A program made the translations under genes and the position numbers. Shown in pieces: positions 5,462 through 41,523 of a stretch of 64,000 nucleotides of DNA. Origin of the DNA: a phage. The first letter of the stretch is position 1, and the number at the start of each line of letters is the position of its first letter. The stretch lies in NCBI GenBank assembly GCA_025611195.1, contig GCA_025611195.1_4718.2. One strand, given 5' to 3'. The notes beneath the pieces were generated by a model that saw only the letters and a list, made by a program, of their open reading frames with translations, was not told the DNA's origin and searched no databases.

Positions 5462-6019
5462 TTACTCCATCCATACTTCTTCGTCGTAATGATTTTCTAT
5501 CGCATTACGCCAAAAACGTACGGTGTCCAAACTAATCGGTGCGTAAAAATGTTGGTCAACGCCTACATTAAGTCCGTTGGCCTTCGCTAACATACAGCGA
5601 TGAATATGCCCGAATAGATTGAAGTAGCCCGGGTTTCTTTCGCTGGGTTTATGGCATAGCCAGTAGGATTCGTCATTGCTAATCGGCAATACCAACGGAT
5701 GTTCATAAACAGCAGCAAACCCCATACCGAGCAGTTTATCACGCCACGCGTCGAAGCTTAATCCTGTCGCTTTGTATGCGTCTTCGTCCCAATTCCCCAT
5801 TACCAATTGAACCTGGATATCAGAACGAATGGCTTCCACGAACTCGAACTTACCCCAATCACCTAAATGCCACAACACACTGTTCTTTGGAAGATTGTTG
5901 ATGGCTTTCAGCATATGTTGGTTCATATCGGCGACGCTTGCGAACGGACGGCGTGAATACGTCCATGTACGCTCGCTATCGAAATGGGTATCCGATGTAA
6001 AGAAGATGGGTGGGGTCAT
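5462..6019 (-). CDS. calcineurin-like metallophosphoesterase
   Basis: Motifs FTSDTHFD, LGDWG, GNWDED, GHIHR match the D-x-H / GD / GN(H)D / GHxH metallophosphatase pattern. Confidence 0.6.
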   Translation of the reverse strand: MTPPIFFTSDTHFDSERTWTYSRRPFASVADMNQHMLKAINNLPKNSVLWHLGDWGKFEFVEAIRSDIQVQLVMGNWDEDAYKATGLSFDAWRDKLLGMGFAAVYEHPLVLPISNDESYWLCHKPSERNPGYFNLFGHIHRCMLAKANGLNVGVDQHFYAPISLDTVRFWRNAIENHYDEEVWME

Positions 6020-6498
6020 TGATCTAATTGCTCCAGAAATGCGCGACCCGATTTACTTGCTTTTAAATGCTGTTCTGCGGAAGTAAGCAGAAGATCGGTT
6101 GGTGTGAATGCAGCGCTACCTTTCCACGCCGTTTTCAGTTTACCCTTTTCGATACTGAACTGAATCAGTTGTTGGGTACCGAAGTTAAGCGTGTTCGTCG
6201 CGGCGCTAAATACACCACCCATCATGCTGTAACCAAAGACTTTCACATTTTCCGTGTAGAAGTCATTGTCGATCAATTTGTTCTGGAGCTCGAGTTGATC
6301 GGACGGCAGCAATCCCCCATCAAAGACACTTAAAATACCAGCCAGGCGATACATACTCACCTTCCCTGCAACGCCCACCACGTAATTGCCATACACGGTT
6401 TCTTCCAGTTTAGCAACAACGGTGCGATCGTCGGAGGTTTTCATCGAAACCTCAATACCATCACCAACTTCTGTCAACGTTAAATCAACGATACTCAT
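6016..6498 (-). CDS. hypothetical protein (160 aa)
   Basis: ORF track; 4-nt overlap with upstream gene. Confidence 0.55.
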   Translation of the reverse strand: MSIVDLTLTEVGDGIEVSMKTSDDRTVVAKLEETVYGNYVVGVAGKVSMYRLAGILSVFDGGLLPSDQLELQNKLIDNDFYTENVKVFGYSMMGGVFSAATNTLNFGTQQLIQFSIEKGKLKTAWKGSAAFTPTDLLLTSAEQHLKASKSGRAFLEQLDQ

Positions 6499-11124: not shown

Positions 11125-11463
11125 TTAGAACCAGAGTTCTTTCATGAGGTAGGCTTCCATATCGTAGATAAGCCACTCGTCAGGAATTTCTAAAGGATCG
11201 TCTTCGGTTAAGGTCAGCATGTGCAGGGCGAACGCACGCTTAATATCGTTCAGCAGTTTCTCGTCGTCGTAACCTTCAGGTAACTTACGGTCTACCAGTT
11301 GGGTTTGTTTATAGACAGCACAGAACGCTTCTGGGCTGTGTTTGTCCATCGGAAATTGTTCAGCAGCCTGAACCATCGTCAACGTCCAGCTTACAACATT
11401 GTAGCGCTCACCGTTAATTTCACTGAACTGATCATCGATTAAACAGATTTGTTGTACGTTCAT
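11125..11463 (-). CDS. hypothetical protein (112 aa)
   Basis: ORF track; 4-nt overlap with upstream gene. Confidence 0.55.
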   Translation of the reverse strand: MNVQQICLIDDQFSEINGERYNVVSWTLTMVQAAEQFPMDKHSPEAFCAVYKQTQLVDRKLPEGYDDEKLLNDIKRAFALHMLTLTEDDPLEIPDEWLIYDMEAYLMKELWF

Positions 11464-12422: not shown

Positions 12423-13997
12423 TTACAATTCAAAATCTTCATCGATAACGCGCTGGGTAAGCACTTTGTCGCTGAAGAACTCCACCTTGCGCTGATGGTA
12501 TTTACGATGCGCTTCGATAGAAGTACATACCAGATACCAGAAGGTTGGCGTCATTCCTTCAAACTTCCCTTTCAGCTGACGCAGTCGCCCCAACACCTGA
12601 ATGTTACCGGTTCGTGACCCCATCGCTAACGTCATGAACGCCATCACCAAGTCAGGAAGGTCGATACCCGTACCTGCCGATTTCACCGTCGTAACGCTAA
12701 TATCGTTATCCAACAAGACCATGAAATCTTCTTCAGCCGTATAAGGACCGATCTCTAACTCAGGAATACGTTCACTAAGGTAATGCGACAACGACTTACA
12801 CATATCGACGGTTGCACAATACACCAGCATCTTCATACCTTCCTGATACTGGTTCATGAAACCTTTGATGATAACCGTATAGATGAAGTTAAAATACGCG
12901 AGTTTGAGTTGCTTGTTCTTCATGATAGACTGTTCGAATATCGTGTGAGAATAAGAACCCCCAAACCCTTTATATCTGACTTTATCTGTACTGCGTAGTC
13001 GATACGTCACGGCATTTACCGCAATGTATTTCTTGTATTCGCCTTTCGCATAACGGGCTTCTTTCGGATACATCAAATACAACATCCGCTCGATGAACGG
13101 ATCATCGGACACCGCCGTTGCTGACAGATAGATGATTTCCGGAATACTAGCGTAACACTTGACCTTAAACAAGAAATGCAATGCTTCATGGCACTCGTCA
13201 TGAATCAGAAGGCCTATGCCGGTCTTTTCCCAAAACTCAGCGGGATGGAAGGCATATGGCGCAACGCAGTTATTCTTCTCGTAGTCCGCAATATAACGTT
13301 GGAACATGTTCAAGGAGAACAATGCGATTTTGAAGTCGAGTTCGCCTTGTTCAACCAAGGTTTGAAACTCCAACATACTGTAACGAGGAATGTCAGGATG
13401 CGGTGGATCCTCCTTAGCGTTCCCGCGTATCTCGATAACATCCCCTGGTTCCATCCCGAAGAAGTTCAGTAGTGAGCTTCGCCAACCTGGCATGTATCTC
13501 GGCGACAGAATGATACCCGTCCGCACACCGCGTCGGAAGGTAATCTCCTGCGACATGGCCGTTTTTCCCGACCCCGTTTGAGCGGTGTTTAGGCTCATTC
13601 TGAAGGGGGTATCCTTACCCCCGTCCATGTACTCCAACCATTCTTGCTGATCTTCACGCCATGGGAACTTCCATTTCTTTACGAACTCCACTTCTTTACC
13701 TGGTGCCGGATCGTGGTAAACGATTTCCAACCACTCTTTTCGTATCCCTCGGGAAAAGATAAAATCCAAAAACGATTTCAACTGTTCGCGGAGTAAGTAT
13801 ACCTCACTATAATCGCTTCTTGCCGCGGCATACGTGTTTATGGTATCGGTAACCATTCTCCGTGTACGAGGGTCGCGCCGTTTCCTCAGATGCAAACAAC
13901 GGTCTCGAAGGTAATGGCCGATAAGATGGGCAAATCGAAGTCCGTATCCGCTCAGCCTCATGCCGTGCGAGAAGACATCGATACGAGCTAACTTCAT
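12423..13997 (-). CDS. SF2 DEAH-box helicase
   Basis: Walker A AQTGSGKT, DEAH-like box LIHDECHE, motif V TVKSAGTGIDLP, motif VI QVLGRLRQ. Confidence 0.65.
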   Translation of the reverse strand: MKLARIDVFSHGMRLSGYGLRFAHLIGHYLRDRCLHLRKRRDPRTRRMVTDTINTYAAARSDYSEVYLLREQLKSFLDFIFSRGIRKEWLEIVYHDPAPGKEVEFVKKWKFPWREDQQEWLEYMDGGKDTPFRMSLNTAQTGSGKTAMSQEITFRRGVRTGIILSPRYMPGWRSSLLNFFGMEPGDVIEIRGNAKEDPPHPDIPRYSMLEFQTLVEQGELDFKIALFSLNMFQRYIADYEKNNCVAPYAFHPAEFWEKTGIGLLIHDECHEALHFLFKVKCYASIPEIIYLSATAVSDDPFIERMLYLMYPKEARYAKGEYKKYIAVNAVTYRLRSTDKVRYKGFGGSYSHTIFEQSIMKNKQLKLAYFNFIYTVIIKGFMNQYQEGMKMLVYCATVDMCKSLSHYLSERIPELEIGPYTAEEDFMVLLDNDISVTTVKSAGTGIDLPDLVMAFMTLAMGSRTGNIQVLGRLRQLKGKFEGMTPTFWYLVCTSIEAHRKYHQRKVEFFSDKVLTQRVIDEDFEL

Positions 13998-16000
13998 AAC
14001 GTGAATACATCCTCCGGTTTAGGTTCTTTGCGCGGTAAAAGCATGTAGTCGATCGGATGATCCGGCTTCATGGTTGGGATATAACTGTTCGGGTTTTGGA
14101 ACGCATCCAGTTGCTCTTGGTGAGCGAACTTCATACTCAAGGAGCGCATGTTCATGTTCTTCTTGAAGGTGCTGAAGTATCGTGTTGTTCCCTGTTTCGG
14201 CATGCGATAATCTTTCGTGTGTGGCGAACGAATCATGCTGGCGTAGAGAATAACATCGAGATGCGAAAGGTTCATTCGCAGACGCTGTGCGCACAAGCGA
14301 TGCCAATAGTACAGCACGTTTGCAACTTCTTCCGGTGTTGCTTCGTCTTCCGAGAGGAACCCGGCACTGAAAGAACCTTTCCCGAATTTGAACTCACGTT
14401 CGATTTCTTTTGCGTATTCCATCATGTTTTTGTGGATTAACGGCATCTGGAATAACGTACGTGAATTGTCCCAATGTTTCAAGTCGAAAATCACAATCCC
14501 GTCAGACGTCACTTCCCAGCTATGGCGTTTAAGATAACGGATAAACGCTTTACTCGGTACAACAGGACGTCCGCAGAAATCGAAATTGACTTTGAGCTTA
14601 CGATAGCTTTCATCTTTCCTGTCGTAAATCTCCATATCGCAAAGCGTCATGTTAAACAGACGCTGTGGTATCAGCGAACTGATTTCTTCCGCTTCGGCTA
14701 CATCGTACAACATGTTCGCAAGACCTAACTTCATCTTAATCAGCACGTGTTTACCTTTCAGCTCACGTGCGAGTTTGATGTCGTTCATGTTCTGGCTGTA
14801 ACGAAGGATATGTTGATATTCCGGTGGGATTGGTGCTGTAGAGACCGTTGACGAACCGTCGTGGTGTTTGGTAGAAAGAATGTTCTGCGTTACCTGTTGC
14901 GAGCAGGTACGCGCTGCGCCATCGCCGACATTATCGGTTAATGCGAAGTTATGACTTAATTCACCATAACACGTTGTGCATACCCCAGCAGGATCGGGAT
15001 GATGACAATAGTTAACGGAGCGCATACGCACTGTGGTGCCGATCAATTCTTTCATATGTGGTTGTATCGCTACCAACGAACCGTCATCACGAATAATGAA
15101 TCGGCCGTGGAAGCCACGCAGGTCGGTCTCATCACGGATTGGCATCGGGATGGTCTCTCTACTACCACAATCACCAGGATGTAGTCGTTGCACAACCGCT
15201 GTCGCTATCTGAAGTTCACGACCGAAATATTCAGACTTTTTAATCTGCTCTTTGTTGAACAGCAACGATTTCGCCGCAGAACGACTTTCTTTCAAGCTGT
15301 CGGGAAGAGAGATCAAACCTGACGCGTACGACCGCATTACTGGATCACGGAATATCTCGGAGTTAATATCGGTCAAGAATCCACGCATCCCAATACACTG
15401 CAGCACCTGCCCAATCGAAACGTGTTCGGTTCTTACCGCACGTGCAATAGGGTTTGCATGTAATGTTTTATCGGTGCTCAGTACCTTTGTCAGTTTCTTG
15501 TATGCGCTTTCGATACCTTCGCGGGTGGGTTCCGCTTCAGCGATGATTTTCTTAACTTCGGGGTGTACGGTAATCTGATAAAAATCATCCGCACAAATAG
15601 TTGTTACGTATTCCTCCAACGCATACGTAAAGAAGTTATACACGTTGTTAAACATATCGAACAGTGCTTTCCAGAGAACCTCACGATTCTCTTGTGGGTA
15701 AGCATACATGCATTGACGATACGCTGCGCTTTGCAACGCTACCGATGAACCCGCTGTAAACTTACGTTTATCAACCAGGTTCTCTTTTGTCAATGGTGTC
15801 TCAGGATACATGCGATGTACAGACCAGTGCATGTAACTAAAGAAAATGCGTCGCGCACGTAATTCATGAACGCCATCGTCCATCTCGATATATACACGGT
15901 CATTAGGCTGTGCCCACTCGAATACCTCATCAACCGGCCAGTGCATAAGCTCGCGTGCCCTCACACGACGTTTCGTGGTGGTCGTCTGTGTTGTAGTCAT
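13994..16000 (-). CDS. multisubunit RNA polymerase beta-prime, C-terminal subunit
   Basis: RSVNYCHHPDPAGVCTTCYGELS..AARTCSQQVTQNILSTKHH aligns by eye to E. coli beta-prime VRSVVTCDTDFGVCAHCYG..AAQSIGEPGTQLTMRTFH. Confidence 0.55.
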   Translation of the reverse strand: MTTTQTTTTKRRVRARELMHWPVDEVFEWAQPNDRVYIEMDDGVHELRARRIFFSYMHWSVHRMYPETPLTKENLVDKRKFTAGSSVALQSAAYRQCMYAYPQENREVLWKALFDMFNNVYNFFTYALEEYVTTICADDFYQITVHPEVKKIIAEAEPTREGIESAYKKLTKVLSTDKTLHANPIARAVRTEHVSIGQVLQCIGMRGFLTDINSEIFRDPVMRSYASGLISLPDSLKESRSAAKSLLFNKEQIKKSEYFGRELQIATAVVQRLHPGDCGSRETIPMPIRDETDLRGFHGRFIIRDDGSLVAIQPHMKELIGTTVRMRSVNYCHHPDPAGVCTTCYGELSHNFALTDNVGDGAARTCSQQVTQNILSTKHHDGSSTVSTAPIPPEYQHILRYSQNMNDIKLARELKGKHVLIKMKLGLANMLYDVAEAEEISSLIPQRLFNMTLCDMEIYDRKDESYRKLKVNFDFCGRPVVPSKAFIRYLKRHSWEVTSDGIVIFDLKHWDNSRTLFQMPLIHKNMMEYAKEIEREFKFGKGSFSAGFLSEDEATPEEVANVLYYWHRLCAQRLRMNLSHLDVILYASMIRSPHTKDYRMPKQGTTRYFSTFKKNMNMRSLSMKFAHQEQLDAFQNPNSYIPTMKPDHPIDYMLLPRKEPKPEDVFTL

Positions 16001-16145
16001 TATTGCTTTCCGATTTAAATGGTTTTATCATACGGTTTACCAAATCCGTTGGACTTTACTATCGTTGTGATAGCATCGGGAATCCCTTCCCTTAGGTTAT
16101 GTAGGTGTTAATATATCTCCACTGCTGTCGTAAAGGTCAGCAGCA

Positions 16146-16631
16146 TTATCCAGCTTCCTGTTGTATAGCGTATGGATCCATAGCGTCTGACATATTCGCA
16201 AAAACGGTGAGAATAAACCCCTTTATCTGTCTCACCTCGGTTACACGAAGCCCTTTATCATTACGGTATACGTTTTCTTCACCAACCAACTTCGGCCTGA
16301 TAGCATAAACCCCATCAACAAACGGGAATGTCGGATACGGATAAATACCGATACGAATGATGTTTGGATGATCGCCTAGAAGGTCACGCCCAAATGTATC
16401 TACTCTACCGTAAACCGTTCCATCCACACCCTCCACTTCAATGAGATCATTTCGAATATCCTGAAATAGCTGCTCTAATGTGTCGGCGGGGTACGTATAT
16501 GCGACACCTAACGCTGGGTCCTCAATGGTTTTGACACTGAATCCGTTAAGCCAAACAATCTGTTCATCCGCCCATGTTTCTTCATATACCGTTAATCCAT
16601 CGCCGTATATGTTGGCGCGTGCTATCTCCAT
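16146..16631 (-). CDS. hypothetical protein (161 aa)
   Basis: ORF track. Confidence 0.55.
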   Translation of the reverse strand: MEIARANIYGDGLTVYEETWADEQIVWLNGFSVKTIEDPALGVAYTYPADTLEQLFQDIRNDLIEVEGVDGTVYGRVDTFGRDLLGDHPNIIRIGIYPYPTFPFVDGVYAIRPKLVGEENVYRNDKGLRVTEVRQIKGFILTVFANMSDAMDPYAIQQEAG

Positions 16632-16744
16632 AATCTCATTTCCTCTTATACGTTCGGATAGATGACATGTTGGATATACGTTGCCTTTGCATATATTGCT
16701 TTATTTCCGTCAGAAATAACGGAAAATAAAAACAACGACATAGT

Positions 16745-16775
16745 TCCCTCCCACCTCCACATGGGAGAGGGAGGG
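16745..16775 (-). terminator. GC-rich stem-loop (CCCTCCC/GGGAGGG)
   Basis: Inverted repeat in the 16632-16788 intergenic region. Confidence 0.4.
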
Positions 16776-16788
16776 CTATTCGTGTTTA

Positions 16789-17154
16789 TTACTCTATGCT
16801 GTCTTCTTCAACACAATCCTCTTCGGAACCGTCGAACGTTTTCTGCACCGCAGTGGTATCCCAGTTGGCAGCGTAATCAGCCATCGCTTCGCGCAACGCT
16901 TCTTCACCAGCATCGCCAGCCAGATCAAGCACAACCAAACCTTGCGCGACGTTTTGAGCGACAGTATCAATAACGGTTGCATCTTCTTCAAAACTACGTA
17001 CCGGTTCAATGGTGCCTACATCAACAGCATAGTTCGTGGTCGCTGTAAGCACGGCGACTTGTAGTGCATCGCTATTATCATCATCATGCAGTGCTGCTTC
17101 AATACCGATTGGACGGGCCAGTTCTTGCAGTGTTAATTTGCGAATTAAGTTCAT
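16789..17154 (-). CDS. small acidic protein, paralog family member 1
   Basis: LTLQELAR and VVLDLAGD motifs shared with the two adjacent small genes. Confidence 0.55.
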   Translation of the reverse strand: MNLIRKLTLQELARPIGIEAALHDDDNSDALQVAVLTATTNYAVDVGTIEPVRSFEEDATVIDTVAQNVAQGLVVLDLAGDAGEEALREAMADYAANWDTTAVQKTFDGSEEDCVEEDSIE

Positions 17155-17177
17155 TATGTTTTTTCCTCAGGTGAATG

Positions 17178-17528
17178 TTAGCAATCGTTTAAAACTTTTT
17201 CGATACGATGGTTGACGAGTTCATTGAACGACTCTTCAACTTGTTCGATAATTTCATCAACGTCGATATCTAATTGTTGGGGTTGGATAACATGCTCTTT
17301 CATGGTTTCTAACCAGTATTCGGCTTTAACCATAACGTTAGCTACTTGTTCGACCTGGCTGCGTATGTCGACGATCTGGCAGTCAGGATTTTTAATATCG
17401 ATGATGTGTCCGTGCTGATTGATAAAGCCTAGTTTATTCGACGCCTTTACCGCATCGCGGGCAAGTTCTTGCAAGATTAAATTATTTACGTAGTTCACTG
17501 CTACGGAACGATTTTCTTTATCACTCAT
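17178..17528 (-). CDS. small acidic protein, paralog family member 2
   Basis: ATG at 17528 with GAGGA RBS; the longer track ORF would read through hairpin 17607-17635; LILQELAR motif. Confidence 0.5.
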   Translation of the reverse strand: MSDKENRSVAVNYVNNLILQELARDAVKASNKLGFINQHGHIIDIKNPDCQIVDIRSQVEQVANVMVKAEYWLETMKEHVIQPQQLDIDVDEIIEQVEESFNELVNHRIEKVLNDC

Positions 17529-17606
17529 ACCAGGGATCCTCTTTAAGTCTTCACATTCTAGTGTTAAGCAGTTAAAATAAACCGTCCCTTTAATCAGCAT
17601 AAACAT

Positions 17607-17635
17607 CCTCCTCCTACCATGCGGGCAGGAGGAGG
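17607..17635 (-). terminator. stem-loop CCTCCTCCT/AGGAGGAGG
   Basis: 9-bp inverted repeat after the stop of 17647-18060. Confidence 0.45.
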
Positions 17636-17646
17636 CGTAATATGCA

Positions 17647-18060
17647 TCAGAAAGGTGTGCGATTCTTATATTCGAATAATGTCTGAAGGACACATCGTGT
17701 TAACGAGTTTTGTAATTCGATACGTCCTTGTTCTCCGAACAGATCCAACACCATCATCCCTTTTGCTGTTTTCTCTGCCACTTCTTCACAAATCTGTAAA
17801 TTGTACATGTCGTCATTGCCGAGTTCCTTTCGACCGATCGAACTGACACGCATCAACTCACCTTTACTATCGCGAACATCGGAGAATGCATCATAGACCG
17901 CATCGATGTTCGCAGAACGCGTCAAACCCTCCGCTTCGCGCCACTCTCGATATGTACCATCAAGCGTTTGTTCCTCGCCCGAGGTTGTTGATTCGCTGTT
18001 GGTGGTTGGGCGAATTAAATGGGGTGTTATCATCGCGATCACGCTGTCGTAATGGTCCAT
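17647..18060 (-). CDS. small acidic protein, paralog family member 3
   Basis: MMVLDLFGEQG and NLQICEEVAEK motifs resemble the neighbours. Confidence 0.5.
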   Translation of the reverse strand: MDHYDSVIAMITPHLIRPTTNSESTTSGEEQTLDGTYREWREAEGLTRSANIDAVYDAFSDVRDSKGELMRVSSIGRKELGNDDMYNLQICEEVAEKTAKGMMVLDLFGEQGRIELQNSLTRCVLQTLFEYKNRTPF

Positions 18061-18071
18061 CGTTTACCTCG

Positions 18072-20240
18072 TTAGCTTTCGCAGTCATCTGCGTCGATGA
18101 TTTGTCCGCCAGCAACGTTCAGTTGATGATACAGAATCCTCAACGCACGGTTGCCACCAATGGGATACTTCTCGAAGTTGGTCGCAATAGGAATCGCTGA
18201 CGGCTTATCGGTCGCATAGATGCTTTCAGTGATGCTATCCACCTGTTTTGGATTGTTCGCATAGTCCATAAAGACGCTCGCAAACCATCCGCCAGCGAAG
18301 GCGGTAACTTCGCGATGTTCAGATTCGCCACAGTAACGAGTCGGTTGCTCTTTACCGGGAGAACTGTATTTATCGCTATTACTGAGTTTCGACGGTAATC
18401 CATGCGCTTGCAATTTAGGGATACCCACAGCCGACCAATCGTTCGCCGTCTTCTCCAACATCATGATGTACGTGTCACCGATCGCAATATCGTTCTTGGT
18501 TGTCCGCCACTGTCCAGAACGCCCGCGGTACCGTACAGGACCTTTCTTCAACGGGAACTCACGAATCAGATTCTCCATACGTTCTGAACCTGCTGCGATA
18601 CTGTCCGTCGGGATATAAACTTCCGTACCGTGGCGCTGTACGTACCGTAAATGATCCCATTTATCCTCATTCGTGATACAGTATTTTTCAACAACCTGTT
18701 CCACGAACTCAGGACTGACGATATAGTAATAGCGCATCAGTGTGTTCCAGGCGGTCTCCAGATCGCCTGCATCCATCACTGGTTTCAGTTCACGCATGAT
18801 CTGATCACCAACGCCGTTGATGTATGGCGCATTAACACGACTTAAACTCATCCTTTTAATTACCGTGCTATCGTCAAACATAAAGTCCGCAACGTTACCC
18901 CATTGGTCAACCGGCATTTCATCGTCTTCCATGATGTCGGTTACGACGAATTTATCGCCTGCCATACCGGTGAATTTAAACCCGATGCCTGGAACAACGT
19001 CATACGTGTATGTGATGGTCACACGCCAATCATCAAGATTCTCTTTACGGTAATCGCGGGTCGGTAACACATGGCGTAGCTGTCCGTTAGGATTGCGGAT
19101 ATCAATACCGTGTTCAGCGTCAGCCAGGTTCAACCACCACATCACCGTTTGATGATGACGTATCGGCGTACCAACGCGTTCACGTTCGTACTTACGAACA
19201 GCATCCTGAATTCGGGTGTAAAGCAAACCGATTGCGTTCTCGTATTTCAGGAATTGACGATACGGAGGACGCATCTTCTCTTCCATCATAATCGCGCGCT
19301 CGCGGGCTTGACGTCCAGAACGACGATGTCGATCGCTGACAACATCGATATCCGTTACACGCGCATTCGGTTCAGCGTAAGTGAGATCATCGTAAACATA
19401 ATCCACACGCTGAAGATTACACGTCATCATGTCAACAACGCTGAGGATAGGATCTATTTCGCGTGTTGCTGCAAGTAACCCATCCTTACGAATACGCTCA
19501 CCGTTCTCGGGTATCGCTTGATATACCTCATCATCGCCGTAGAGATTAATTGGATATCGTGATTTACCTGATGTGATCGTTCGCTTCTCAATGCCGGTAC
19601 TGGTGAAATGCTTCAATACACCACGACGGGCAACGCCACCATCTTCAATACACTGGTAGAAGCTACCGAAACACACCTTGCAATCGCGACCGTAACCCCA
19701 CTCACGTGTTTCTTGATTGATCGCTGGGCTTTCCATCAAACGAGAATATCGCGGTACGATCTGGCCTCGACGAAGGGAATGGAACAAGTTGGTTGGTCGA
19801 AAACGGAAACCGTACTGCTGATGCATGATGTGATGCTCAGGCACTTCAAGCAAGCGTAGCTCGTGACGGTTACCATCCTCTTGGTTTTCGTACAGCACGT
19901 AATGCATCGTGTTTGTTTTGATGCTGTTTGCTGTATGTCCTGGTTGAAACCGTGGAATGATATCTATGATGCGAGATTCAACTGGAAACTCTACTGACCA
20001 AGTGTTCTGTCCGTACTGGTATTCAATCCCCGTCGTTAGTCGGGACGGCTTCGCATCTTTGATAACCAACGCTTGGCTAAGATGTCCACCAAACATCGCA
20101 GCGCGCTGTGCTGAGTTATAATGCAATAGCCCGTTAAGTCCAGTCCCTACGCCAGTATACTCCTGTTTAATGGGAATGATTTTACCTTCAGCGATTGCCT
20201 GCTTCACAGATTCATAAAGAGGTTTTTCTTTATAATGCAT
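18072..20240 (-). CDS. multisubunit RNA polymerase beta, C-terminal portion
   Basis: TGMAGDKF..EMPVDQWGNVADFMFDD..IKRMSLSRV resembles beta GRHGNKGV..DMPYDENGTPVDIVLNP..PSRMNIGQ; YIMMLEK resembles YMYMLKL; ATG at 20240 has AGGAAG RBS. Confidence 0.6.
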   Translation of the reverse strand: MHYKEKPLYESVKQAIAEGKIIPIKQEYTGVGTGLNGLLHYNSAQRAAMFGGHLSQALVIKDAKPSRLTTGIEYQYGQNTWSVEFPVESRIIDIIPRFQPGHTANSIKTNTMHYVLYENQEDGNRHELRLLEVPEHHIMHQQYGFRFRPTNLFHSLRRGQIVPRYSRLMESPAINQETREWGYGRDCKVCFGSFYQCIEDGGVARRGVLKHFTSTGIEKRTITSGKSRYPINLYGDDEVYQAIPENGERIRKDGLLAATREIDPILSVVDMMTCNLQRVDYVYDDLTYAEPNARVTDIDVVSDRHRRSGRQARERAIMMEEKMRPPYRQFLKYENAIGLLYTRIQDAVRKYERERVGTPIRHHQTVMWWLNLADAEHGIDIRNPNGQLRHVLPTRDYRKENLDDWRVTITYTYDVVPGIGFKFTGMAGDKFVVTDIMEDDEMPVDQWGNVADFMFDDSTVIKRMSLSRVNAPYINGVGDQIMRELKPVMDAGDLETAWNTLMRYYYIVSPEFVEQVVEKYCITNEDKWDHLRYVQRHGTEVYIPTDSIAAGSERMENLIREFPLKKGPVRYRGRSGQWRTTKNDIAIGDTYIMMLEKTANDWSAVGIPKLQAHGLPSKLSNSDKYSSPGKEQPTRYCGESEHREVTAFAGGWFASVFMDYANNPKQVDSITESIYATDKPSAIPIATNFEKYPIGGNRALRILYHQLNVAGGQIIDADDCES

Positions 20241-20271
20241 AGGACTTCCTATTATCGAATTGAGGTACGTC

Positions 20272-20625
20272 ATGTCTAACACGCCCCTGAACGACTTTCT
20301 TAAGACAAACCCCGATGACCTCATCCACGATCTTGATTTCAGGAACGTTGTTGAGATGCATCTGGAATATTTCAAAAATGCCGGACTGGTCTCTACGATA
20401 GACATACCACCCGAACGCGCCTACGAATTCGATGGTAACTTTTATGGATTGTGTCGTGTTCTGCTCGGCGAGGGCAGTGAATCAATGCACTGGATCACCA
20501 TGAGACTCAATGGTTATCGCGACCCTACGGAATACACGGCCGATGTTCTAACCATGAAGATTGTCGATACAAGCGCAATCAACACATTAAAACAGCAGTA
20601 CCGCACAATCCACTACAGCGCTTAA
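20272..20625 (+). CDS. hypothetical protein (117 aa)
   Basis: Track start is TTG at 20260; ATG at 20272 has GAGGTA RBS; diverges head-to-head from the beta gene. Confidence 0.5.
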   Translation: MSNTPLNDFLKTNPDDLIHDLDFRNVVEMHLEYFKNAGLVSTIDIPPERAYEFDGNFYGLCRVLLGEGSESMHWITMRLNGYRDPTEYTADVLTMKIVDTSAINTLKQQYRTIHYSA

Positions 20626-41001: not shown

Positions 41002-41523
41002 TTATTTAAAAATGTATTCATACCCGAAAGTCGTCGCCGACCAGACCCGGATAGATGATAGTGTTCCACCACGATAAAACGTTTTTGTGAACTCCATATC
41101 CTGGACAACACGATAATAAACACGTCCGATAATACGCACGATAAGATATCGTGATAACGATCTCTCCTCGCAGTACTCATCGATAAAGTCATCGTCGATA
41201 TCTGATAAGACAACGTCTGCGATTTCTTGCAGTAGATTCCTCATCAGCATCTGCCTTCCTTCGGTACCCCACCCAGACAAACAGTAGTCGTCTTCTGCTT
41301 GACTATAGATGTCGTTAACCGCCTGTTCGAGCAGTTGCTCAAGATAGTAGTCATCGCGCTTTATAACGTGGCGACGGCGCTCAGAGGCGTATTTTTCCAT
41401 CCTGTGTTTCTCTTGTTCGGCGTATGTATTAACGACGCCACAGTCTTTTCTGGATCGTCCCACAATGCGCGACGAAAACTGGATACTACCATAACGGTAG
41501 GATAGATTTGTACGACCTCCCAC
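41002..41523 (-). CDS. hypothetical protein (start uncertain, possibly 41400)
   Basis: ORF track; overlaps upstream ORF by about 160 nt unless an internal start is used. Confidence 0.4.
   Translation of the reverse strand: MGGRTNLSYRYGSIQFSSRIVGRSRKDCGVVNTYAEQEKHRMEKYASERRRHVIKRDDYYLEQLLEQAVNDIYSQAEDDYCLSGWGTEGRQMLMRNLLQEIADVVLSDIDDDFIDEYCEERSLSRYLIVRIIGRVYYRVVQDMEFTKTFYRGGTLSSIRVWSATTFGYEYIFK

Follow-up and report, generated by a model that had tools for sequence, protein, structure and literature searches.

In the phage phiKZ, the nvRNAP gene for gp71/73 carries gp72, a homing-endonuclease insertion. The stretch of DNA analyzed here (64,000 nucleotides, in the following termed the window) stems from a close relative of the E. 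coli jumbo phage Goslar (Chimalliviridae) and likewise bears a lineage-specific insertion at this polymerase locus. Unlike the phiKZ insertion, it lies between genes rather than inside one and is devoid of a nuclease domain: family-library searches revealed no HNH, GIY-YIG or other nuclease domain in any gene of the inserted island. Three of these genes, which we designate A, B and C, are direct orthologs of Goslar gp168, gp169 and gp170 (YP_009820853-55), which are annotated as hypothetical proteins and are found in the same order and position. One of them, gp168, is mentioned as an abundant virion-associated protein in a 2026 preprint (bioRxiv 10.64898/2026.04.21.720040). The genes of the locus are:

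13994..16000, minus strand: nvRNAP beta-prime C-terminal-half gene, ortholog of phiKZ gp74 and Goslar gp165 (context)
16146..16631, minus strand: fourth island gene, 161 aa, acidic, Goslar gp166
16789..17154, minus strand: gene A, 121 aa, Goslar gp168
17178..17528, minus strand: gene B, 116 aa, pI 4.68, Goslar gp169
17647..18060, minus strand: gene C, 137 aa, pI 4.68, Goslar gp170
18072..20240, minus strand: nvRNAP beta-like subunit gene, ortholog of phiKZ gp71/73 and Goslar gp171 (context)

A first-pass annotation of this DNA had described three adjacent small acidic genes of 116-137 aa at 16789-18060, situated between genes for the RNAP beta subunit and the C-terminal part of beta-prime. Coordinates and sizes proved correct, and the pI values range from 4.05 to 4.68, with A as the most acidic of the three proteins (pI 4.05) and its C-terminal tail being acidic. 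The flanking genes were also rightly recognized as RNAP genes and belong to the nvRNAP. The beta-like gene matched PHROG 3295 (3.5e-180) and PDB chain 7ogp_C (phiKZ gp71/73; 6.9e-86, with the match beginning at residue 88 of the 777-aa ORF) and has 99.9% identity with Goslar; Goslar annotation and homology place its start near 20240, and the mechanical ORF extends to 20405. The beta-prime C-terminal-half gene matched 7ogp_D (phiKZ gp74; 6.5e-87) and also aligns with residues 733-976 of full-length bacterial beta-prime. What the annotation had missed is that the gap holds the 161-aa gp166 gene as well, the product of which has no relation to A, B or C (p 0.06-0.75).

The segment 16001-18071 is a Goslar-lineage-specific accessory island inserted between the two nvRNAP genes. 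It comprises ~2 kb and contains C, B, A and gp166, four real genes whose order is retained in 10 Goslar-like genomes. The insertion becomes apparent by comparison with six other chimallivirus genera that possess both RNAP genes: RAY, Proteus phage 10, Eowyn, Xoo-sp14, PhiEaH1 and Psa21 have them 2-22 nt apart and lack the island. Conservation of the triplet in related phages, which had been suggested as a check, is thus seen among the Goslar-like genomes but does not extend to the other six genera. In L006, a divergent relative represented by a single 3.9-kb contig, C and A lie side by side and B is missing. Searches for A, B and C by tblastn against 50,697 phage records gave no match beyond Goslar, word-indexed searches matched close relatives alone, and an exhaustive profile search over 1.84 billion proteins recovered just two 50%-identity clusters of A, both from Goslar-like phages. 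No homolog of gene B was found outside Goslar-like contigs.

A, B and C evolve faster than their flanks. All three are under purifying selection, and we regard them as real genes because of dN/dS values of 0.03-0.18 (A, 0.03-0.09; B, 0.08-0.14; C within an allele class, 0.05-0.18). Identity with the Goslar orthologs is 97.5% for A and 93% for B. Longer versions of B with an upstream extension to 140 aa or 171 aa were rejected as non-coding owing to a frame-breaking 1-nt indel polymorphism inside the putative extension.

Gene C, with a Shine-Dalgarno sequence of its own and a start 11 nt past the stop codon of beta, shares 54% amino acid identity with Goslar gp170, compared with 94-99% for the flanks, and a sharp trough in identity is apparent at 17550-18050. 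C exists as two deeply diverged alleles of ~55% identity, and the window carries the other one than Goslar. In the genomes L009 and L010, the A and B proteins are identical and the C alleles are opposite. C alleles have been moved by recombination between otherwise near-identical genomes, and allele type is uncoupled from the genomic backbone. The dimorphic gene provides a small, clean case of allele exchange among near-identical jumbo phage genomes.

The terminator scan and published expression data for Goslar bear on how these genes are transcribed. Two hairpins are found in the region:

16746..16775, minus strand: GC-rich hairpin after A, followed by a T-run at 16722-16735; dG -32.9, z -5.0
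17607..17635, minus strand: GC-rich hairpin right after C, found by terminator scan; dG -31.3, z -6.0

Both have an invariant stem and a variable loop, as seen across 10 genomes for the hairpin after C. The latter resembles a terminator, yet the published read density does not drop there (gp170, 1.44 and gp169, 1.39 reads per nt; bioRxiv 10.1101/2023.09.20.558163). Downstream of the hairpin after A, the same data show a decrease from 1.59 to 0.40 reads per nt (bioRxiv 10.1101/2023.09.20.558163), and this hairpin is probably the 3' end of a beta-C-B-A transcript. Read density over gp168-170 equals that of the upstream nvRNAP beta gene (bioRxiv 10.1101/2023.09.20.558163). A, B and C are indeed co-transcribed with the nvRNAP beta gene, in the form of early-class mRNA. 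Upon knock-down of ChmA (chimallin), gp168-170 showed log2 fold changes of +0.6 to +1.1, and gp168 and gp169 class with ChmA, PhuZ and ChmC; values of -3 to -7 were reported for the major capsid protein, tail, inner-body proteins, vRNAP and validated packaged proteins (bioRxiv 10.1101/2023.09.20.558163, Sup. Table 2). We assign gp168-170 to the early, nucleus-independent class because their expression is unaffected by chimallin knock-down. The phiKZ-like early promoter TATATTAAC, with up to one mismatch allowed, was not enriched (19 matches versus 17.9 expected).

CsCl-purified Goslar virion preparations contain ~219 copies of gp168 (A) and ~92 copies of gp169 (B) per virion-equivalent, along with ~3 copies of gp170 (C), 0.25 of gp165 and none of gp171 (bioRxiv 10.64898/2026.04.21.720040, Table S4). 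Early-class non-virion proteins are present in the same preparation, namely ChmA with 126, PhuZ with 171 and ChmC with 78 copies (Table S4), and the authors state that such non-virion assemblies co-purify (bioRxiv 10.64898/2026.04.21.720040). The explanation that best accommodates the whole of these observations, and to which we give an even chance of being correct, is that A, B and C are lineage-specific accessory proteins and not polymerase subunits. A and B would be made early and in large amounts and would attach to a large phage-built assembly. Nuclear shell or PhuZ material, which is not part of the virion but purifies along with it, is a more probable candidate for this assembly than the inside of the capsid. 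Transcript class is the one ground for this preference over packaging, and since transcripts of the early class last throughout infection, their products might nonetheless end up in the capsid.

It is a real, albeit doubtful, possibility that A and B are genuine packaged virion proteins, internal or ejected, which are loaded into the capsid, reach the early infection vesicle together with the DNA and act before any phage gene expression. Besides the copy numbers of A and B in the CsCl-purified material, this is favored by the ranking of gp168 among the 12 most abundant unmodelled virion-associated proteins (bioRxiv 10.64898/2026.04.21.720040). Expression level alone does not explain the enrichment of A and B because C and the nvRNAP subunits are ~100-fold lower in the preparation at the same mRNA density. 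However, every validated virion or injected component that was checked, i.e. the major capsid protein, tail sheath and tube, gp58, gp60, gp208, gp209, gp22/23 and four vRNAP subunits, is late and nucleus-dependent (log2 fold change -3 to -7), whereas gp168 and gp169 respond like ChmA, PhuZ and ChmC, which are non-virion proteins present at similar copy numbers. Neither A nor B contains a PF12699 or DUF7941 domain. The mismatch is shared by gp158 and gp214, which also have early-class transcripts, yet are among the most abundant proteins in virion preparations (bioRxiv 10.1101/2023.09.20.558163; bioRxiv 10.64898/2026.04.21.720040). We flag this disagreement within the published data for all four proteins; deciding between packaging and carriage on nuclear-shell or PhuZ material would help to sort virion cargo from contaminants in chimallivirus proteomics.

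Diverged, recombination-exchanged alleles are common at host-interaction loci. With this in mind, A, B and C could be early host-takeover or anti-defence factors. They would be acidic proteins that inhibit stoichiometrically, for instance by mimicking nucleic acids in the manner of Ocr, Arn or ArdA, and C would be the member engaged in an arms race. Their strong acidity (pI 4.05-4.68), small size, early class, restriction to one lineage and evolution at a faster pace than the flanks would all agree with such a role, as would the deep divergence of the C alleles and their exchange by recombination. We nevertheless consider it unlikely: searches of Pfam, NCBIfam, PDB and BFVD revealed no similarity in sequence or structure to any known inhibitor (the structure models being too poor to assess a charge geometry like that of B-DNA), the low dN/dS gives no hint of positive selection, and the passage of A and B through the CsCl gradient together with virions is left unexplained.

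A bolder proposal sees A and B as a novel pair of proteins, highly acidic and produced early, that would nonetheless be incorporated into the capsid or attached to the virion. Entering the host along with the genome, they would act within minutes of the onset of infection and might, for instance, neutralise a host factor in the surroundings of the early infection vesicle; specificity would be tuned by C as a diverged paralog with exchangeable alleles. We judge this to be improbable. If true, it would be the first case in a nucleus-forming phage of a packaged component that derives from the early, vesicle-stage programme, here encoded inside the nvRNAP operon.

The first-pass annotation had hinted at a transcription-associated role on the basis of position, and position is all that speaks for the hint. 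An RNAP role for A, B and C is not supported, and it is very unlikely that they are three diverged tandem paralogs acting on transcription as nvRNAP accessory factors or host RNAP inhibitors. Such a function could be read from the location between nvRNAP genes, from shared transcription with the beta gene, whose read density is the same, and from the segment shared by A and C and the hexapeptide common to A and B that are described below. On the other hand, the island is missing in six genera that possess the same polymerase, profiles of A, B and C run against all PDB chains matched no phiKZ or AR9 nvRNAP chain, A and B are abundant in a virion preparation from which nvRNAP subunits are essentially absent, and B lacks significant similarity to A or C.

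The three genes had also been interpreted as products of an old tandem duplication, for which pairwise hhalign was the proposed check. The motifs on which this view was built are indeed present, LQELAR in A and B, VLDLAGDAG in A (residues 75-83) and VLDLFGEQG in C (residues 104-112). The segments concerned are:

16879..16983, minus strand: shared module in A, residues 58-92 (hhalign and HMM alignments)
17113..17130, minus strand: LQELAR in A, residues 9-14 (read from the sequence)
17457..17474, minus strand: LQELAR in B, residues 19-24 (read from the sequence and BLASTP alignment)
17698..17802, minus strand: shared module in C, residues 87-121 (hhalign and HMM alignments)

The duplication stood up for A and C only, within a module of ~35 residues; for B, hhalign was not significant against either neighbor. 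A and C aligned by BLASTP (2e-5 over 31 aa), in a Smith-Waterman shuffle test (p = 1/3000) and by hhalign (E 4.6e-4 to 9e-5 over 35-37 columns), where the probability was only moderate (33-59%) because the available homologs are shallow (Neff about 1.5-2). Among 2907 ORFs from the window and the rest of Goslar, A was the best non-self match of the C-family HMM (E 1.3e-4) and C ranked first with the A-family HMM (E 0.024), making them reciprocal best HMM hits across a whole genome-equivalent. Five further pairs of A and C from three lineages were all significant over the same segment (p <2e-4 to 6e-3), so that 6/6 cross-lineage pairs agree in register, with conserved glycines. The module follows the pattern VA...G-h-h-h-L-(D/E)-h-(A/F)-G-(D/E)-x-G-x-x-x-L. 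In the low-confidence AF2 models its secondary structure is helix, break, helix in both proteins, with the break at Gly80 in A (pLDDT 44) and at Gly109 in C (pLDDT 50). Homology over the full length was rejected, as some pairwise alignments reach upstream, but the N-terminal parts alone are dissimilar (p 0.2-0.9). Judged from the sequences, A and C are in all likelihood partial paralogs that share this one module and nothing else. That the resemblance is instead chance or a convergent amphipathic helix pattern without any paralogy is most improbable, for although just ~35 residues align at an hhalign probability of no more than 59%, the N-terminal parts are unrelated and the AF2 models are too poor for comparison, the two families are reciprocal best hits, all cross-lineage pairs keep the register and the glycines, and the A and C genes are neighbors in L006.

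For A and B the similarity is borderline: 14 residues around LQELAR align, with p = 0.03 in the full-length shuffle test and an hhalign probability of 6-16%. An exact 6-mer common to both has a chance of 6.5e-4; with the A ortholog of L006, which is divergent and reads LLEVLR at the LQELAR position, there was no such match (p = 0.35). B and C showed no similarity (BLASTP E 5.8, hhalign probability 0.1-0.2%, no HMM hit). As far as these alignments go, B is not demonstrably related to A or C. A motif HMM built from A and C scored neither B nor the A N-terminus above background as a third copy of the module, and the ORF at 41002-41523 was not significant as a further paralog (C HMM E 0.24 and B HMM E 1.8, genome-wide). 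Because C and A are adjacent and B is absent in L006, a scheme that fits is duplication of C/A first, with B added later in the Goslar clade or lost in the L006 lineage; the contig in question is a single one of 3.9 kb.

AF2 models of A (pLDDT 44) and C (pLDDT 50.5) are too poor to compare folds, and Foldseek with these models against BFVD gave no match at E <= 0.001. Profile searches of PHROGs, Pfam, NCBIfam, PADLOC and PDB yielded only sub-threshold noise that we take as chance, and matches to DUF6428 (14.7 bits, cut-off 28.7), RraA (13.5, cut-off 123.8) and carbamoyltransferase (17.4, cut-off 288) were discarded. Motif I of class I SAM methyltransferases resembles VLDLGxGxG. VLDLxGxxG was rejected as such a motif: its glycine spacing is (A/F)-G-x-x-G and not G-x-G-x-G, a full Rossmann-type domain is lacking, ~40 residues remain past the motif, and no Pfam methyltransferase matched even at E <= 1. 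A helix-hairpin-helix was ruled out by glycine spacing, protein size and lack of Pfam matches. If A, B and C are accessory proteins, as we prefer to think, the module shared by A and C would likely be a protein-protein contact, and C, as the low-abundance, allele-swapping relative, may face a variable partner.

Comparison with known systems places the island as follows. The small acidic early phage inhibitors T7 Ocr, T4 Arn, T7 Gp2 and PBS2 Ugi agree with A, B and C in size, strong negative charge, early expression, restriction to a lineage and fast evolution, but not in sequence or fold; none of the four is known to co-purify with virions. The PF12699 inner-body proteins (Goslar gp53-58, phiKZ gp92-97) and the DUF7941 proteins (gp22/gp23) resemble the island in consisting of adjacent diverged paralogs with members that are abundant in virion preparations. 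Late-class, conserved across the whole virus family and with recognisable domains, they differ from A, B and C, which are early-class, match nothing in Pfam and are restricted to the Goslar lineage. The value of our analysis is modest and lies in correcting the reading as three paralogs and removing the implied link to RNA polymerase: the island is an ordinary lineage-specific cluster of orphan accessory genes, already annotated in Goslar.

All three adjacent reading frames that the first-pass annotation had placed between the RNA polymerase genes were recovered by an ORF check with the positions and sizes it gave, and they are as acidic as it had claimed:

16789-17154, minus strand: gene A, 121 aa, pI 4.05, Goslar gp168
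17178-17528, minus strand: gene B, 116 aa, pI 4.68, Goslar gp169
[quoted passage not shown] The flanking non-virion RNA polymerase (nvRNAP) genes, beta and beta-prime, and gp166 lie on the same strand. Pairwise dN/dS values of 0.03-0.09 for A and 0.08-0.14 for B (four related genomes) and of 0.05-0.18 for C (related genomes, inside one allele class) indicate that all three are real, constrained genes. Upstream start codons giving B 140 or 171 aa were rejected: Goslar and three other genomes show a 1-nt indel polymorphism within the extension, which leaves 116 aa as the coding reading.

Both motifs reported for these proteins are present:

LQELAR: A residues 9-14; B residues 19-24
VLDL(A/F)G(D/E)xG: A residues 75-83; C residues 104-112

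The observation is real and partly above chance. An old tandem duplication of three paralogs had been proposed on this basis; it holds for A and C, over a module of about 35 residues, and not for B. Residues 58-92 of A align with residues 87-121 of C (BLASTP 2e-5; Smith-Waterman shuffle test 1/3000; hhalign E 4.6e-4 with the tool's alignments, and 9e-5 at a probability of 59% once divergent homologs from L006, a contig of a related phage, were added). The strongest test was an HMM search against an empirical null of 2907 stop-to-stop ORFs from the window and the remaining Goslar genome, in which the top non-self match of the C-family HMM was A (E 1.3e-4), that of the A-family HMM was C (E 0.024), and no other of these ORFs came near such scores. 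Five more A x C pairs from three lineages were all significant in identical register (p <2e-4 to 6e-3), and upstream of the module no similarity between A and C was found (p 0.2-0.9). A and C are therefore partial paralogs. In the AF2 models the module of both proteins consists of two helices separated by a break at a conserved glycine; at pLDDT 44 and 50, this common arrangement is only suggestive. Genome-wide, a 173-aa ORF (41002-41523, minus strand) gave weak, non-significant matches to the C-family (E 0.24) and B-family (E 1.8) HMMs.

B has no demonstrable kinship to either neighbor. Its alignment with A covers 14 residues around LQELAR (full-length shuffle p = 0.03; hhalign probability 6-16%). 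An exact hexapeptide common to A and B is expected in 6.5e-4 of shuffles, which makes the match curious, and it is lost when B is compared with the divergent A ortholog, which has LLEVLR at this place. The module HMM built from A and C gave B no score, and pairwise comparisons including hhalign found no similarity between B and C. Comparison of the three proteins by hhalign, chosen beforehand as the test that could refute the array, was accordingly non-significant for two of the three pairs, A-B and B-C.

The labels given to the flanking genes were correct. The gene upstream of the island, i.e. the DNA between beta and beta-prime, matches phiKZ gp71/73 of the solved nvRNAP structure (7ogp_C, 6.9e-86), and the downstream 668-aa gene matches phiKZ gp74 (7ogp_D, 6.5e-87) and the C-terminal half of bacterial beta-prime; the polymerase is the non-virion enzyme. 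A helicase gene follows beta-prime. The mechanical beta-like ORF (18072-20405, 777 aa) overlaps a divergent gene at 20260-20625; homology to phiKZ gp71/73 from residue 88 and the Goslar annotation of 722 aa place the beta start probably at 20240 (18072-20240). The divergent gene (plus strand, about 117-121 aa) lies upstream of beta on the opposite strand, and small opposite-strand genes of 96-122 aa, likened by position alone, occupy the equivalent place in L006 and in six other phages: Erwinia RAY and PhiEaH1, Proteus phage 10, Klebsiella Eowyn, Xanthomonas Xoo-sp14 and Pseudomonas Psa21.

In these six phages beta and beta-prime are separated by just 2-22 nt, with the helicase and the upstream gene order kept, showing that the 2.07 kb at 16001-18071 are an insertion peculiar to the Goslar lineage. 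Within the island lie C, B and A, a 31-codon ORF of doubtful status and gp166, a gene of 161 aa. Conservation of the triplet in related phages was borne out in the Goslar-like genomes retrieved, the order C-B-A-gp166 being constant in 10/10; the six other phages have no island, and in the more distant L006 (beta identity 65%) C (31% identical) is followed directly by A (48%), with B absent from the 125-nt gap. By tblastn, A, B and C were found only in Goslar among phage records. Word-indexed searches of 5.8 billion proteins returned, besides the L006 homolog of A, nothing but close relatives on roughly 240-kb contigs, and an exhaustive HMMER profile search with A of 1.84 billion cluster representatives returned exactly two clusters. 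PHROGs, Pfam, NCBIfam, PADLOC, PDB sequences and BFVD folds gave no usable match. NCBI assemblies under the labels Shigella flexneri, Shigella sonnei, Salmonella enterica and E. coli O157 include Goslar-like contigs (238-249 kb); the phage or close relatives thus surface in bacterial-isolate sequencing.

C diverges sharply from its surroundings. Protein identity to Goslar is 99.4-99.9% for beta and beta-prime, 98% for A, 93% for B, 92% for gp166 and 54% for C, and DNA identity of 94-98% gives way to 58-70% only at 17550-18050, a trough with sharp edges that corresponds in essence to the coding sequence of C. C comes in two allele classes (about 55% amino acid identity) carried by genomes that are otherwise almost the same. 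The A and B proteins of contigs L009 and L010 are identical and their C alleles opposite, indicating that recombination shifts C alleles between backbones; C is under purifying selection within a class, so the divergence reflects replacement of one allele by another and not runaway positive selection.

Two GC-rich hairpins with invariant stems and variable loops in ten genomes punctuate the island:

17607-17635, minus strand: hairpin after C, dG -31, z -6
16746-16775, minus strand: hairpin after A, dG -33, z -5

Near-invariant in the ten genomes is also GAGATATATTAACACCTACATAACCTAAGGGAAGGGATTCCC (about 16060-16115, minus strand), a candidate promoter or regulatory element in an otherwise indel-rich spacer upstream of beta-prime. 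The 9-mer TATATTAAC, which resembles the phiKZ early-promoter core, is not enriched in the window. The mini-ORF annotated as Goslar gp167 (16646-16741, 31 codons) is probably no gene: it overlaps the T-run belonging to the hairpin behind A, 1- and 2-nt indels shift its frame in L017 and L020, and published RNA-seq gives it only about 0.4 reads/nt. The spacer that holds it is better conserved than the coding sequence on either side. Published raw reads/nt are flat over gp171 (1.47), gp170 (1.44), gp169 (1.39) and gp168 (1.59), drop to 0.40 past the hairpin behind A and then reach 0.99 in gp166 and 1.25 in gp165 (bioRxiv 10.1101/2023.09.20.558163). From this profile we infer a single beta-C-B-A transcript ending at the second hairpin; the first would be an inefficient terminator.

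Gene numbers in both Goslar papers are those of RefSeq (gp161 is the leucine-rich-repeat protein in record and paper). RNA-seq at 30 min, compared with and without knock-down of chimallin, gave log2 changes of +0.84 to +1.12 for gp168, +0.60 to +0.94 for gp169 and +0.76 to +1.12 for gp170, with gp171 and chimallin responding alike; the major capsid protein, tail sheath and tube, gp58, gp60, gp22/23, gp7, gp88, gp208/209 and four vRNAP subunits fell by 3 to 7 log2 units (bioRxiv 10.1101/2023.09.20.558163, Sup. Table 2). The rise places A, B and C in the early class, transcribed without the phage nucleus. Label-free MS of CsCl-purified virions estimated copies per virion of about 219 for gp168, 92 for gp169, 2.8 for gp170 and 1 for gp166, 0.25 for gp165 and 0 for gp171; the authors count gp168 among ten abundant virion-associated proteins without predicted function, and report that nucleus fragments and PhuZ filaments co-purified (chimallin 126, ChmC 78, PhuZ 171 copies) (bioRxiv 10.64898/2026.04.21.720040, Table S4). 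The same mismatch between early transcript and abundance in the preparation is seen for gp158 (6019-6498), gp162 (11128-11463) and gp214 (outside the window), at about 926, 127 and 865 copies per virion-equivalent (bioRxiv 10.64898/2026.04.21.720040) and log2FC +0.3 to +1.3 on ChmA knock-down (bioRxiv 10.1101/2023.09.20.558163).

Because C and the polymerase subunits have equal mRNA density yet are about 100-fold scarcer in the preparation, A and B may attach specifically to some large assembly. A role of A, B and C in anti-defence or host takeover is compatible with their charge, timing and narrow distribution and with the C allele pattern. True packaging of A and B in the virion would fit their copy numbers and is a serious, if less likely, rival, since all validated virion components checked are late-class and gp168 and gp169 belong to the class of chimallin, PhuZ and ChmC; the assembly bound by A and B would more likely be co-purifying non-virion material than the capsid interior. 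The transcription-associated role suggested by position is unsupported, and the three are apparently not polymerase subunits, as they are absent from all other genera checked that have the enzyme, match no nvRNAP chain and are abundant in a preparation nearly devoid of the flanking nvRNAP subunits. All three are orphan genes already listed in the annotation of a well-studied phage, and their interest, low to moderate, lies mainly in the dimorphic C gene and in the mismatch of early transcription with co-purification with virions.
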